In this document: one piece after another, positions 5,783 to 24,252 of the stretch | How the letters are laid out: each line of letters begins with the position of its first letter | Numbering within the stretch: the first letter of the stretch is position 1 | Program-made: the position numbers and the translations under genes | Notes under the pieces: generated by a model | What the model was told of the DNA's origin: nothing | Seen by the model: only the letters and a program-made list of their open reading frames with translations | Databases searched by the model: none | NCBI GenBank assembly: GCA_016200645.1 | Contig: JACQEJ010000084.1 | Span: forward strand, 1-42,754 | DNA length: 42,754 bases | Direction: 5' to 3' | Source: Deltaproteobacteria bacterium | GTDB taxonomy: Bacteria > Desulfobacterota > GWC2-55-46 > UBA9637

Positions 5783-7957
5783 GTGGCAAAAGATCTGTTA
5801 TTGGAAATAGGGACAGAAGAGATACCGGCCAGGTTTATACCAAATGCCCTGGAATCAATAAAACTATCCCTTGAAAAGAACATGATGGCTAGAAACCTTC
5901 ATCATAAATCTATTCAAACCGTTGGGACGCCGAGAAGGCTTGTCCTCTACGCGCAAGACATGGATGAGAAACAGGCTGATACTGTTGTTGAGACAATGGG
6001 ACCCGCAAGGCGCGCCGCATTTGATGAGCATGAAAAGCCCACTAAGGCAGCAGAAGGATTTGCAAAGAGCCAGGGCATAAAAGTAAAAGATTTGCAGATT
6101 GTTAAGACTGAAAAAGGCGAATATATCTGCGCAAGAAAAGAGGTTAAAGGAAAAAGGACAAAGGATATTCTGCAAGAGGTCCTGCCTAAAATCATAACCG
6201 AAATTCAGTTTCAAAAGGCAATGCGGTGGGGCAATGGCGACATACGGTTTGCAAGGCCAATCCACTGGATAGCGGCAATATTCGGCAAGGACACAATCCC
6301 TTTCAAAGTCGGACATATAAAGGCAGGGGCGGTTTCTTACGGCCACAGGTTTATGAAGCCGCAGCCATTCAAAGTGACGGGGTTGAAGGATTATCTCAAA
6401 AAAACAAAGGCTGCTTATGTGATTGCCGATATGGAAGAACGGAAACAGGCGATACAAAAAGGGATTAAAAAAGAGGCAAAGACAATCAACGGGGTAGTTT
6501 TGCAGGACGATGAACTCCTTGCAGAGGTTACAAATCTTGTGGAATATCCGGTGGCGCTTCGCGGCGGTTTTGACAGGGAATTTTTAGCGCTTCCCAGGGA
6601 TGTGATCATCAATGCCATGCGGGAGCATCAGAGATATTTTTCTGTAGTTGATAAAGAAGGGAATCTCCTTCCTTATTTCATATTCGTTGCCAACACAAAG
6701 ACAAAAGACCCGAAGGTTGTTATCAAGGGGAATGAGCGGGTGCTGAAGGCGCGGCTCTCCGATGCAAAATTTTATTTTGACAAAGACATAAAGATTCCGC
6801 TCAAGGACAGAGTGGAGCAATTGAAGGGCGTTGTGTTTCAGGCAAGGCTCGGCACATCGTATGAAAAGGTGGAAAGATTTACAAGGCTTGCTGTTTATAT
6901 AGGAAATGAGGCGCGTTTTTGTAATTCCATGGGTGCATTGGAAAAACCTGAGGATTTTCTTACAGAAAATTACAATCCTAAAAATTATGACCCTCAAAAA
7001 ACCGACCCGGGATTCATCGCCAAATATATAATCGGCCGCACTGCCATGCTCTGCAAGGCTGACCTGGTATCAGGCATGGTCGGAGAATTTCCAAAGCTTC
7101 AGGGCGTCATGGGCATGGAATATGCGCTCGTCTCCGGCGAATGCCCTGATGTGGCCAGGGCAATCTATGAACATTATATGCCGACGCAGGCAGGCGGAAA
7201 GACGCCGGCAGGCATTCCGGGGGCAATCATCAGCATAGCTGATAAGATGGATACGATATGCGGATGTTTCGGCGTAGGCCTTATTCCAACGGGAGAGAAA
7301 GATCCGTATGCCCTGCGAAGGCAGGCGCTCGGCATCATCGCCATAATCATTGAAAAGGGATTTCCCGTAAGCATTGACAAGATTGTTGACATATCAATAT
7401 ATCTCCTCAACTCCAAACTCACGAGAACTCTCGCTGATGTAAAAAAGGATGTGATGGAATTTTTCAAAGAGCGGCTCAGGAATCAACTGATGTCGCAAGG
7501 CTCATCCTTTGACACGGTGGACGCGGTGCTGTCAAGTTCATGGCATGACATAAATGATGCGATAAAAAGGGTGAAGACGCTGGAGAAGTTCAAGAAAAAC
7601 CCTGCATGCGGCGCATTGGTCGTTGCGTTCAAACGTGTGTCCAACATATTAAAAGGGATTGAGCTCAACGATGAAAAACCGGATGCCGCACTTTTTGAGG
7701 ATGTGAACGAGAGGGCGCTCTTCGAGGTTGAAGAGAGGATTGCGCCGGAGATAGCCGCATATTGGAAAGACGGTAATTATGAAAAGGTCTTTGAAACATT
7801 GTCGTCGCTCAAAGGCATTATAGACACCTTCTTTGACAAGGTCATGGTCATGGTGGATGACGAGAAAATCCGGCGCAATCGTTTGGTATTGCTCAATACT
7901 GTCAGGAACCTTTATTACCAGATTGCGGACATATCAAAACTGGCAGCGCAGATATGA
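5783..7957 (+). CDS. glyS: Glycine--tRNA ligase beta subunit
   Basis: LLLEIGTEEIP, TPRRL, F.RPIHWI, GNERVLKARLSDA, DPYALRR and RRNRL motifs; GTG start. Confidence 0.97.
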   Translation: MAKDLLLEIGTEEIPARFIPNALESIKLSLEKNMMARNLHHKSIQTVGTPRRLVLYAQDMDEKQADTVVETMGPARRAAFDEHEKPTKAAEGFAKSQGIKVKDLQIVKTEKGEYICARKEVKGKRTKDILQEVLPKIITEIQFQKAMRWGNGDIRFARPIHWIAAIFGKDTIPFKVGHIKAGAVSYGHRFMKPQPFKVTGLKDYLKKTKAAYVIADMEERKQAIQKGIKKEAKTINGVVLQDDELLAEVTNLVEYPVALRGGFDREFLALPRDVIINAMREHQRYFSVVDKEGNLLPYFIFVANTKTKDPKVVIKGNERVLKARLSDAKFYFDKDIKIPLKDRVEQLKGVVFQARLGTSYEKVERFTRLAVYIGNEARFCNSMGALEKPEDFLTENYNPKNYDPQKTDPGFIAKYIIGRTAMLCKADLVSGMVGEFPKLQGVMGMEYALVSGECPDVARAIYEHYMPTQAGGKTPAGIPGAIISIADKMDTICGCFGVGLIPTGEKDPYALRRQALGIIAIIIEKGFPVSIDKIVDISIYLLNSKLTRTLADVKKDVMEFFKERLRNQLMSQGSSFDTVDAVLSSSWHDINDAIKRVKTLEKFKKNPACGALVVAFKRVSNILKGIELNDEKPDAALFEDVNERALFEVEERIAPEIAAYWKDGNYEKVFETLSSLKGIIDTFFDKVMVMVDDEKIRRNRLVLLNTVRNLYYQIADISKLAAQI

Positions 7958-9806: not shown

Positions 9807-9873
9807 CCCGCGCCACTTTCCATTACCAAGGCCGAAAATTAGTATATGCCTTGGCGCAGGAAAGTGGCGCGGG
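9807..9873. repeat. 67-bp palindromic element (CCCGCGCCACTTT...AAAGTGGCGCGGG), copy 1
   Basis: Long hairpin; two differences from the copy at 9975-10041; GTAAA on both flanks. Confidence 0.9.
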
Positions 9874-9880
9874 GTAAAAA

Positions 9881-9956
9881 GGGCCCATAGCTCAGTTGGA
9901 AGAGCCACCGGCTCATAACCGGTCGGTCCCTGGTTCGAGTCCAGGTGGGCCCACCA
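9881..9956 (+). tRNA. tRNA with CAT anticodon, most likely tRNA-Ile2 (lysidine)
   Basis: Cloverleaf GGGCCCA/TGGGCCC, CTCATAA loop, TTCGAGT T-loop, encoded CCA; paired G1-C72 argues against fMet. Confidence 0.9.
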
Positions 9957-9974: not shown

Positions 9975-10041
9975 CCCGCACCACTTTCCATTACCAAGGC
10001 CGAAAATTAGTATATGCCTTGGTGCAGGAAAGTGGCGCGGG
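9975..10041. repeat. 67-bp palindromic element, copy 2
   Basis: Direct repeat of 9807-9873 on the other side of the tRNA. Confidence 0.9.
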
Positions 10042-10861: not shown

Positions 10862-11410
10862 TTGAAAGACAACCTTACATATAGGTTCCTCAAAAGATTG
10901 GCAGAAAATCTTGATATGGCCAAAACAATGAAAGAGTTTCCGGAAGTATCTGTTAAGGAGATACATTCTCTTTTTCTCAAACTTGCCGATACCTTTCGGC
11001 CGGAAGATACGGTTCATATCTATGTGGACGGGGCATCAAGGGGGAATCCGGGTGATGCCGGCATCGGCGTGGTTATCACAACTGAGGATGGGAAGATATT
11101 GAAAGCCCTGGGGAAATATATCGGCAAGACTACAAATAATGTGGCAGAATACCAGGCCCTTATTACTGCGTTAGGGGAAGCAAAGTCACTGGGGGGAACA
11201 GAGATTAAGATATTTGCAGATTCAGAGCTTATGGTTAAGCAGATAAAGGGCGAATATAAGGTGAAAAGCGCCGGTCTTTTGCCGCGTTATCAAGAGGCAA
11301 AAACTTTATTGATGAAATTCAGCAAATATGATATTATTCATATAAAGAGGGAAAAGAATGCGGAAGCAGATAGACTTGCAAATCAGGCAATAGATATGAA
11401 GGCTCGCTGA
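10862..11410 (+). CDS. rnhA: Ribonuclease HI family protein
   Basis: YVDGASRGNPG, TNNVAEYQALI, DSELMVKQ and REKNAEADRLAN motifs. Confidence 0.92.
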   Translation: MKDNLTYRFLKRLAENLDMAKTMKEFPEVSVKEIHSLFLKLADTFRPEDTVHIYVDGASRGNPGDAGIGVVITTEDGKILKALGKYIGKTTNNVAEYQALITALGEAKSLGGTEIKIFADSELMVKQIKGEYKVKSAGLLPRYQEAKTLLMKFSKYDIIHIKREKNAEADRLANQAIDMKAR

Positions 11411-11431
11411 AGCGAGATGAGATGGCCGCTG

Positions 11432-11499
11432 CCCAGCGCCACTTTCTGTTACGAAGCATGGCAGAATTATCAAGTTTCGTGCCGGAAAGTGGTGCTGGG
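11432..11499. repeat. Palindromic element (CCCAGCGCCACTTT...AAAGTGGTGCTGGG) in rnpB P3
   Basis: Termini resemble the 67-bp elements flanking tRNA-Ile2. Confidence 0.8.
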
Positions 11500-11549
11500 T
11501 GGAGGAAAGTCCGGACTCCGCAGGGCAGGGAGGTCGCTAACAGCGACCG

Positions 11550-11615
11550 CCCAGCGCCACTTTGCATTGCAAGTCTGATTATAAAATCAGATTCAGCGCG
11601 GCAAAGGGGCGCCGG
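11550..11615. repeat. Palindromic element of the same family at the rnpB P9 position
   Basis: CCCAGCGCCACTTTGC...GCAAAGGGGCGCCGG between the P8 hairpin and AGGGAAAGGGCCACAGAA. Confidence 0.75.
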
Positions 11616-11652
11616 ATAGGGAAAGGGCCACAGAAAACAAACCGCCTAAAAG

Positions 11653-11738
11653 GCAGGGGCTGGGGGCTAGGTATTAGGGGCTGGTTAAATTATTTAATGC
11701 TTTTTACCAGACTCTAGTCTCTAGTCCCTAGTCTCTGT
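11653..11738. repeat. Heptamer inverted array, family F (GGGGCTA/TAGTCYC), in rnpB P12
   Basis: GGGGCTG/GGGGCTA arm pairs with (CTAGTCT/CTAGTCC)n using G-U pairs. Confidence 0.85.
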
Positions 11739-12012
11739 ATTTTTAGGTAAGGGTGAAACGGCGGGGTAAGAGCCCACCGCCCCGATGGTGACATCGGGGG
11801 CAGGGCAACCCCCTCCCGGAGCAAGACCAAATAGGAAGGCATTGAAGGATGGCCCGTCCGCGCCTTCGGGTTGGTCGCTTGAGGCGCTGAGCAATCGGCG
11901 TCCCAGATGAATGGTCATCGCCCTTTTGGGGAACAGAATCCGGCTTACGGTCTCGCTTCAGCGATTTTTTTGTGGTTCTTTTGTATGTTAGTTGAAGAAG
12001 CTGCCTAACTAA

Positions 12013-12226
12013 AAGAGGCATGGGGAATTTTTTCTGTCAAAACAATATTTCCATATTGCCAATGGAACGGCAGAGCAAACCAAATTTAGTAAATCCTATA
12101 CCCCATTGAACTTGCCTGAACAAAGCCTCTGGAAACCTGCCTAGCCTGGCAAAACACGAAGGCATTGGGGTCTTAAAAAAGGCACGGCAAAATTTGTTTT
12201 GACAGAAAAAATTCCCCATGCCTCTT
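12013..12226. mobile_element. 214-bp MITE-like element with 33-bp perfect terminal inverted repeats
   Basis: 12013-12045 is the exact reverse complement of 12194-12226; interior homologous to 27992-28210. Confidence 0.7.
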
Positions 12227-12317
12227 CCAATGAGGTTTTTTTAAAGTAAATTCAACTTTTTTTACGAAAGAATCCTTTTTATAGCATAGAATGAGGAGGC
12301 GCGAATTCTTTCCGTCG

Positions 12318-17191: not shown

Positions 17192-17267
17192 AAATACAGG
17201 CTATGGGCAATGGGCTATAGGCTATGGGTTTTCCTATCGCCTATCGCCTATTGCCTATTGCCTGTCT
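17192..17267. repeat. Heptamer inverted array, family B (GGCTATA/GGCAATA), empty copy
   Basis: 37-bp arm identical to 19230-19266 and 24143-24179; fills the clpX-lon gap. Confidence 0.95.
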
Positions 17268-19229: not shown

Positions 19230-19315
19230 AAATACAGGCTATGGGCAATGGGCTATAGGCTATGGGGTTTTCTCCTATTGCCTATTGCCTATCGCCTATC
19301 GCCTATAGCCTGTTT
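19230..19315. repeat. Heptamer inverted array, family B, empty copy
   Basis: Same 37-bp arm; the other arm supplies the tig stop codon. Confidence 0.95.
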
Positions 19316-24108: not shown

Positions 24109-24252
24109 GGCTATAGGCTATTGGCGATAGGCTATGGCCATGAAATACAGGCTATGGGCAATGGGCTATAGGCTATGGGGTTTTCCTATTTCCTATTGCC
24201 TATCGCCTATTGCCTGCTTTTTGCCTATAGCCTGCCTTTATCGCCTATTGCT
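24109..24252. repeat. Heptamer array, family B, downstream of the four-helix gene
   Basis: Contains the 37-bp arm (24143-24179), a local inverted arm and the gene's stop codon. Confidence 0.95.

Follow-up and report, generated by a model that had tools for sequence, protein, structure and literature searches.

Ribonuclease P (RNase P) RNA is a textbook ribozyme, the outer helices of which are usually treated as slowly drifting decoration. A 42,754-nt contig of a deltaproteobacterium (JACQEJ010000084.1; the whole stretch analysed is referred to as the window) carries on its forward strand an RNase P RNA gene, rnpB, which is about 170 bases longer than usual. We propose, with a probability of roughly 0.7, that it is the sole working rnpB of bacterial class A in the organism, and that repeats of the host genome supplied the DNA from which three of its outward-pointing hairpins, those of helices P3, P9 and P12, were rebuilt, with the core left untouched. 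The source genome (G000; other genomes are likewise given by G numbers, contigs by C numbers and loci by three-digit L numbers) is a metagenome bin of 1.98 Mb in 201 contigs and is 93.9% complete.

The rnpB gene and its core

A cmscan search of the whole window placed the Rfam model RF00010 at positions 11409–11963 of the forward strand, a length of 555 nt, with 298.8 bits at a gathering score of 100 and an E-value of 6.2e-97. The match covers model positions 1–367 and is untruncated. Helix P1 may begin five nucleotides ahead of the cmscan start, since its 5′ strand at 11404–11417 forms a perfect 14-nt inverted repeat with 11951–11964. Because this inverted repeat could add 5′ bases, the RNA would be 555–561 nt long, and the 559 nt given by an earlier reading of the window (the original prediction) lies between the two values. 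P1 closes the minimum free energy (MFE) fold of the full-length RNA. The MFE and centroid folds of the 561-nt RNA recovered P1, P2, P8, P14, P15–17 and P18 (z −12.4).

Outside the inserts, the Rfam alignment has high posterior probability in both P4 strands, the joining segments J11/12 and J12/13, P13, P14, the GGU of loop L15, P18 and P1/P2. The strands of the P4 pseudoknot, GAGGAAAGUCCGG at 11502–11514 and ACAGAAUCCGGCUUA near 11933–11947, match the consensus and are invariant in eight aligned sequences. The specificity-domain modules CCACAGAAAAC and GGUAAGGGUGAAA, P13, P14 and the L15 element CGGGUUGG align to RF00010 with similarly high posterior probability, and the L15 GGU, which pairs with the 3′-CCA of tRNA, is present. 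The two P4 strands, J11/12, J12/13, P13, P14, the L15 GGU and P18 match column for column in seven relatives. The claim that all conserved blocks are intact is thus borne out by both the model and the relatives.

Four DNA runs of one study contain the stretch, with shares of 0.83–0.95 in a run search. Logan contigs from two DNA samples of one study are identical to positions 11380–11780 across all three inserts: a 1788-nt contig from run X1 covers the interval with 0 differences, as do two contigs from run X4. The inserts are therefore not an artefact of a single assembly, since independent Logan contigs match them.

Three outer helices made of repeat DNA

The Rfam alignment, which had been named beforehand as a check, does not place the additional segments in helices of normal length. 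It assigns 54 nt to the P3 loop compared to 4 in the model, 67 nt to P9 compared to 10, and 83 inserted nucleotides to P12. The positions proposed originally for inserts in P3, P9 and P12 coincide with the predicted helices.

The P3 insert (11432–11499) is one copy of a palindromic repeat of about 66 nt (CCCAGCGCCACTTTC...GGAAAGTGGTGCTGGG) and folds at −48.9 kcal/mol (z −8.6). It stands in place of the 19-nt P3 hairpin of relatives (CCCCGATGTAATATCGGGG). The P9 insert (11550–11615) is a diverged copy of the same palindrome, with a fold of −33.5 kcal/mol (z −5.3). Its 5′ arm is identical to that of the P3 insert over 15 nt (GCCCAGCGCCACTTT, the start of both), and its 3′ arm has two mismatches to the palindrome consensus. 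Both segments had been described as palindromic before, and they turn out to be members of one family with 14 copies in the genome. The 12-nt word TTTGCATTGCAA inside the P9 insert is shared with a second, larger repeat family.

The P12 extension (11653–11738) is a 34-bp hairpin of two heptamer arrays (−48.6 kcal/mol, z −6.7), with a degenerate array of the GGGGCTG type as its 5′ arm, a CTCTAGT-type 3′ arm and an A/U-rich loop. In agreement with the heptamer stem of the original prediction, Tandem Repeats Finder detected period 7 at 11712–11736, with 3.6 copies of CTCTAGT, in the 3′ arm. At the DNA level the two arms lack complementarity; in RNA, 34 pairs form between them, eight of which are G-U. 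The antisense strand of this insert folds at only −20 kcal/mol.

For each of the three inserts, none of 200 shuffles folded as well as the actual sequence, and each keeps its local hairpin when the complete 561-nt RNA is folded, in the MFE as well as in the centroid structure. The extensions of P3 and P12, with 31 and 34 pairs, are nearly perfect duplexes, and the loops of all three inserts are A/U-rich.

Heptamer arrays are frequent throughout the genome, with 722 at period 7, whereas periods 6 and 8 have 122 and 64, respectively. The window contains 27 heptamer arrays of at least three units, for example at 1535–1604, 17199–17260, 19237–19308 and 24109–24177, and one of the window arrays consists of ten units of GCTATCA.

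The inserts in comparison with relatives

We compared the gene with the whole class (96 genomes), which yielded 78 full-model rnpB matches; for 35 genes, conserved anchors served to determine how long the intervening segments are. The rnpB of G000 is the longest of the 78, nine of which reach at least 450 nt. Its P1–P3 segment is 93 nt long, compared to 34–53 nt in the others except for G028, where it measures 91 nt. The P5–P11 segment has 113 nt in G000, 55–57 nt in 28 genes, 65–66 nt in five and 76 nt in one. The P12 segment has 114 nt, compared to 23–61 nt in most genes and 82–123 nt in G004, G008, G011, G018 and G028. The 40 matches without segment measurement have at most 409 nt, which leaves no room for a 50-nt insert in a frame of normal size. 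The P9 insert is unique among the 78 genes of the class. A metagenome scan for a P9 of 40–70 nt between the same flanks found none. The original prediction had singled out the P9 insert as the unusual one, which holds within the class; an extended P9 as such, however, has a precedent (PMC9945441).

The inserts of P3 and P9 are absent from the four other rnpB genes of the same genus and from three of the same family. In an alignment with seven same-family sequences, the core is near-identical and short hairpins occupy P3 and P9 in all of them. The palindrome, searched for as an exact pattern, was found in none of six other genomes of the genus. Since the same-genus and same-family genes lack the P3 and P9 inserts and the same-genus genomes lack the palindrome, the inserts are recent and lineage-specific. 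Three outer helices were rebuilt from two kinds of repeat since the split from same-genus relatives, around a constant core.

In an evenly drawn phylum sample of 151 genomes, four other rnpB genes have at least 500 nt (G140, 525 nt; G177, 550 nt; G183, 540 nt; G210, 573 nt). Heptamer-built P12 arms occur in at least seven other rnpB genes of this sample, including those of G210 and G183. An expanded, apparently three-armed P12 is common to the genes of G004, G008, G011 and G018 (L009, L031, L029, L016) and of G210 and G183 (L172, L175), with a middle arm composed of heptamers whose units vary from genome to genome. This three-armed P12 and the expanded P12 of Thermodesulfatator indicus may share one architecture.

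The short-form genes of relatives have a repetitive feature of their own. In G002, G005, G007 and G009 (L003, L005, L006, L002), the stem CCCCGAT...ATCGGGG recurs in the hairpins of P3, P9 (in G005 and G007), P12, P14 and the P19 position, which gives the impression that a single hairpin was duplicated across the gene. Hairpins with this stem number only four in the whole G000 genome. The 553-nt rnpB of G022 (L035) has a P15–P17 region of 252 nt with long palindromes of another kind.

The palindromic repeat family

The palindrome of about 66 nt, with the termini CCCAGCRCCACTTT/AAAGTGGYGCTGGG, is present in G000 in 14 copies of 59–100 nt if up to two mismatches per arm are allowed; the count depends on the pattern, with eight exact copies compared to 14 loose ones. 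Two of the 14 are in rnpB, two flank the gene for tRNA-Met and one lies 76 nt from that for tRNA-Ser, and four sit within 2.2 kb. The termini are conserved and the 30–40-nt interior is variable. The exact pattern is present in 15 of the 96 class genomes, with up to 117 (G028), 45 (G062) and 31 (G046) copies. A scan with one genome per species detected the palindrome at no fewer than 127 loci. Among the loci listed, most are in metagenome-assembled genomes titled Deltaproteobacteria or Thermodesulfobacteriota, and the other hosts are Saccharibacteria and other members of the candidate phyla radiation (CPR), Elusimicrobia, Anaerolineales, Spirochaetota, Gammaproteobacteria, Acidobacteriaceae and Pirellulales.

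Many dispersed copies, conserved terminal inverted repeats, small size and the absence of coding capacity fit the class of elements resembling MITEs (miniature inverted-repeat transposable elements). Filled sites can be compared to empty ones at rnpB, where P3 and P9 are short in seven relatives, at the tRNA-Met gene, the flanks of which are empty in five relatives, and in the rnpB of G028 compared to that of its congener G038. The copy at 9808–9872 is flanked by TAAA on each side. At the rnpB copies, which stand in place of native hairpins, no target-site duplication can be seen.

Candidates for a partner element were rejected. The arm pairs of G000 that are about 1.8 kb apart enclose the genes of a type II secretion system ATPase and an AMP-binding enzyme and no transposase. 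Transposases of the Y1_Tnp/RAYT type (RAYT, repetitive extragenic palindrome-associated tyrosine transposase) are encoded in 60 of the 96 class genomes and do not track the palindrome; G028 with its 117 copies, G047 and G034 have none. Targeting of tRNA genes as a general rule was dismissed as well: three of the 14 copies in G000 are within 76 nt of a tRNA gene, compared to one of the 127 listed loci elsewhere within 150 nt. The palindrome had no matches on viral contigs.

Other stable RNAs were inspected in five palindrome-bearing genomes. The signal recognition particle RNA has normal length in all five, and transfer-messenger RNA (tmRNA) has normal length in two (G062 and G070). The tmRNA was not found in G000 with ARAGORN or RF00023, nor above the cut-off in G028 and G047, where, as in G000, it could be unassembled or disrupted. 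The large-subunit rRNA is unassembled in G000 and in five element-rich genomes. In the literature searched, the palindrome arm sequences were not found in a relevant context, and there was no report of a bacterial MITE in rnpB.

The palindrome in other RNase P RNA genes

Three other genomes, which belong to two other families of the class, carry the palindrome in rnpB: G028 and G047 in P3, P12 and the P19 position, and G070 in P12. In G028, compared to its congener G038, each native hairpin was replaced outright, with unchanged flanks and no duplication. The alignment of G000 with its relatives indicates the same for P3 and P9, where the hairpins are replaced and the flanks kept, again without duplication.

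A metagenome scan for the junction between the 3′ arm of the palindrome and the P4 strand retrieved six contigs (L180–L185), from other, mostly AT-rich lineages. The full palindrome, CCCAGCACCACTTT...AAAGTGGTGCTGGG, forms P3 in five of them, and in L184 only the 3′ arm is recognisable. The sequences downstream differ widely, and three of the six contigs reach the RF00010 gathering score.

Nine copies of the palindrome were thus seen in four rnpB genes of the class. Given the 265 exact copies that 15 genomes hold in about 31 Mb, about 0.05 would be expected inside their rnpB genes by length. The copies of one gene cannot be counted as independent; in G047, a single base distinguishes the one in P12 from that in the P19 position. 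The excess in rnpB is real, and it could be caused by insertion preference, local hopping or retention. The occurrence of the palindrome in rnpB of four class genomes and six metagenome contigs points to an apparent liking of the repeat for this gene. In G046, rnpB is on the minus strand at 6744–7125, and a palindrome copy (C46, 7150–7213) is found upstream of its 5′ end at a distance of 25 nt.

The inserts have a strand asymmetry. The P3 and P12 stems of G000 contain 15 G-U and no A-C oppositions, and the sense folds are stronger than the antisense folds by 17 and 29 kcal/mol, respectively. The sense strand is the more stable one in eight of the nine rnpB-embedded palindromes, the exception being P9 of G000. 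We considered the G-U excess as proof of selection after insertion and rejected it: copies outside rnpB have the same orientation-linked asymmetry, for example five G-U oppositions compared to one, and for P3 the excess is largely inherited from the family. The asymmetry speaks for a favoured orientation in rnpB and does not demonstrate selection after insertion.

We speculate that the palindrome, CCCAGCRCCACUUU...AAAGUGGYGCUGGG, might be a horizontally spreading hairpin cassette with a preference for the outer hairpins of RNase P RNA, an idea that we regard as tentative and closer to doubtful than to probable. The cassette would replace these hairpins in unrelated groundwater phyla, in a single orientation and hairpin for hairpin. 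It would enter P3 most often, followed by P12, the P19 position and P9, and would not move by ordinary cut-and-paste transposition with target duplication.

Function of the gene and fate of the inserts

RF00010 has a single match in the G000 assembly, and the class B RNase P RNA model RF00011 has none, so that the search for another intact rnpB, which had been proposed as a way to refute the original prediction, returned neither class in the assembly. The gene for the protein subunit, rnpA, is intact, with a match to PF00825 of 102.8 bits in an open frame of 136 amino acids on contig C84. Homologues of Aquifex RNase P (HARPs) belong to the PIN_5 cluster, according to PMC8266387, and PIN_5 had no match in G000. 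Since the 555-nt gene is the sole RF00010 match, RF00011 and PIN_5 are without matches, rnpA is intact and the DNA was seen in two samples, we conclude that it is probably the working rnpB of the organism.

Based on the alignment and the predicted folds, a mechanism can be proposed by which the RNA would accommodate the inserts. P3 and P9 are copies of the MITE-like palindrome, and distally P12 consists of two heptamer arrays that pair into a hairpin with the help of G-U wobbles. Each insert is itself a hairpin located at the tip of a helix, and its effect would for this reason be a mere coaxial lengthening of the helix. Neither the catalytic core nor the two strands of the P4 pseudoknot would be affected, and the same would hold for the modules that recognise the T-loop and CCA and for loops L8, L14 and L18. 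The loop–helix contact between L9 and P1 would be the only one given up. Outside thermophiles, the L9–P1 contact is not known to be required. The A/U-rich tip of P12 may be nicked harmlessly, with the pieces staying paired. The gene offers natural material for testing what size of extension P3, P9 and P12 tolerate, and whether the contact between L9 and P1 can be dispensed with.

Several points weigh against a working RNA that retains its inserts. Two metatranscriptome runs gave zero depth over the inserts, and their RNA contigs contained only the conserved core with the letters of other organisms; these runs hold only small shares of the stretch (0.09–0.10). At 93.9% completeness, the unassembled DNA has room for a HARP or another rnpB. 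The genome contains an RNase III gene, and together with the long, near-perfect duplexes of P3 (31 pairs) and P12 (34 pairs) this makes cleavage of the inserts plausible. The P RNA of T. indicus, with its expanded P12, is cut in the native host (PMC9945441). Furthermore, a P9 extension of about 25 bp must pass helix P1, where it might be sterically hindered. We lean slightly towards retention of the P3 and P9 extensions in the mature RNA, and expect, with distinctly less than even odds, that at least one insert is cut.

Whether the inserts are tolerated as helix extensions or excised had been posed as alternatives, and PMC9945441 holds precedents for both outcomes. If the inserts were transcribed and then excised or nicked like the intervening sequences of rRNA, by RNase III or by an RNase E-type enzyme in the A/U-rich tips, the mature RNA would consist of two to four paired pieces. 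The T. indicus P RNA, which natively loses the distal A/U-rich part of P12 and still complements Escherichia coli (PMC9945441), speaks for such processing, as does the cleavage of Correia-element hairpins, which are MITEs, in transcripts by RNase III (PMC10969869), an enzyme that G000 encodes. The P3 and P12 extensions of 31 and 34 pairs and the A/U-rich loops of all inserts would suit these nucleases. The G-U wobbles and 1x1 mismatches, however, probably make the stems poorer substrates of RNase III than perfect duplexes, and cyanobacterial P RNAs bearing STRRs (repeats of the short tandemly repeated repetitive type) have been reported to be intact. The P RNA of Methylacidiphilum infernorum, with an extended P9, was also seen at full length (PMC9945441), and we consider excision unlikely on balance. 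The inserted hairpins could, on the other hand, be kept for a function, for instance to bind a protein, stabilise the RNA or help its folding, instead of being simply tolerated. The nine palindrome copies in four rnpB genes, set against the 265 exact copies in about 31 Mb, the better sense fold in eight of the nine, and the worsened complementation after replacement of the T. indicus P12 by a short one (PMC9945441) could be read in this way. Nevertheless, close relatives manage without the inserts, the sites used simply have loops without an essential contact, the strand asymmetry belongs to the whole repeat family, copies in one gene are non-independent, and no partner protein is known. A function of the hairpins is therefore quite improbable.

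That this rnpB is a decaying or silent copy, with RNase P activity supplied from elsewhere, is suggested by its unusual length and by the 6% of the genome that is unassembled. It is contradicted by the score of 298.8 bits with all conserved blocks intact, the absence of another rnpB or a HARP match in G000, the intact rnpA, and the restriction of inserts to helix tips, unlike random decay; we give this explanation very little credence. A misjoining of repeats into rnpB during assembly might be suspected of a fragmented bin of 201 contigs with inserts from repeat families. Nonetheless, the Logan contigs of X1 and X4 span 11380–11780 without a difference, and three other genomes carry the palindrome at equivalent rnpB helix tips, which makes an artefact extremely improbable. 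The preferred reading remains that of a sole working rnpB with three hairpins rebuilt from repeats.

Comparison with known systems

Insertions of repeats in rnpB are already known from cyanobacteria and Rickettsia, and the present case therefore adds breadth, not a new principle. It is distinguished by a single gene with three inserts that derive from two types of repeat, by the P9 site, and by a palindrome that crosses phyla and has repeatedly replaced rnpB hairpins. STRR heptamers reportedly lie within P12 of the rnpB of heterocyst-forming cyanobacteria. That system resembles the one described here in that heptamer arrays found throughout the genome extend P12 of a class A RNase P RNA. However, G000 represents a groundwater bacterium with a genome of about 2 Mb and not a cyanobacterium, the repeat units appear to differ, and G-U wobbles account for a large part of the pairing between the P12 arms of G000 (8 of 34 pairs).

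Rickettsia palindromic elements (RPEs) were found inside the genes of M1 (RNase P) RNA and tmRNA (Ogata et al. 2002, as related in PMC2229807). The RPE is, like the palindrome of G000, a dispersed non-coding hairpin repeat that has terminal inverted repeats and is located within the gene of an essential stable RNA, where it is presumed to be neutral (PMC2229807). In contrast to the RPEs of 105–146 bp (same source), the palindrome has about 66 nt and an unrelated sequence, and it occurs in several phyla. Two copies are present in one rnpB of G000, and up to three in relatives, and the palindrome replaces the native hairpin instead of interrupting it.

Northern blot and rapid amplification of cDNA ends revealed that, in vivo, the A/U-rich distal portion of P12 is removed from the P RNA of T. 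indicus, in which this helix is expanded (PMC9945441). Both RNAs are of class A and have a greatly expanded P12 with an A/U-rich distal part. In G000, however, P12 consists of one plain heptamer hairpin, and the expansion also involves P3 and P9. The M. infernorum P RNA has an extended P9 together with P16.1, P18.1 and P19 elements, was detected at full length and complements E. coli (PMC9945441). It shares with G000 the extended P9 in a class A P RNA, which is functional and full length there; in M. infernorum, unlike in G000, the extension is a feature of the lineage and not a copy of a dispersed repeat. The CPR bacteria have diverged RNase P RNAs with large helix extensions that needed manual refolding (Lui, Nielsen and Arkin 2021, PMC8172020). 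They are similar to G000 in being uncultured groundwater bacteria with oversized or rebuilt peripheral helices (PMC8172020), but the extensions of G000 were traced to repeat families and its core scores normally (298.8 bits). For annotation, repeat inserts inflate rnpB and can hide the gene from standard tools; the literature on Bcheck and P finder that was searched contained nothing on repeat inserts.

Gene neighbourhood

The open reading frame at 10862–11410 on the forward strand encodes an rnhA-like RNase H with matches to PF00075 (RNase_H) and PF13456 (RVT_3). Its TGA stop at 11408–11410 overlaps the first bases of rnpB, as had been predicted. The adjacency of rnhA and rnpB is kept in 10 of the 12 relatives' loci searched with tblastn, up to the class level, and the overlap thus appears to be a conserved feature of the lineage and not peculiar to this copy. 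A run of seven T residues at 11965–11971, directly 3′ of the 3′ strand of P1, is likely to mark the end of the transcript; a simple terminator scan did not list it. A promoter-like site inside the 3′ end of rnhA (11309–11337, TTGATG-17-TATTAT with TG) is a consensus match only, and the two such sites found are not above chance, with 4.2 expected in shuffles.

Two further palindrome copies, identified by the family search on the forward strand, flank the tRNA-Met gene at 9881–9956, one at 9808–9872, 9 nt upstream, and the other at 9976–10040, 20 nt downstream. Both sites are empty in five relatives. The upstream copy separates the tRNA-Met gene from a promoter-like TTGACA-17-TAGTAT site.

Directly after the T-run of rnpB, at about 11974–12272, there is a copy of the second, larger repeat family, about 300 nt in length, with 38-nt terminal inverted repeats at 12013–12050 and 12190–12226. 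Elsewhere in G000, near-full copies of this family are located on C95, C152, C124, C61 and C109, and partial matches on more than 25 contigs.

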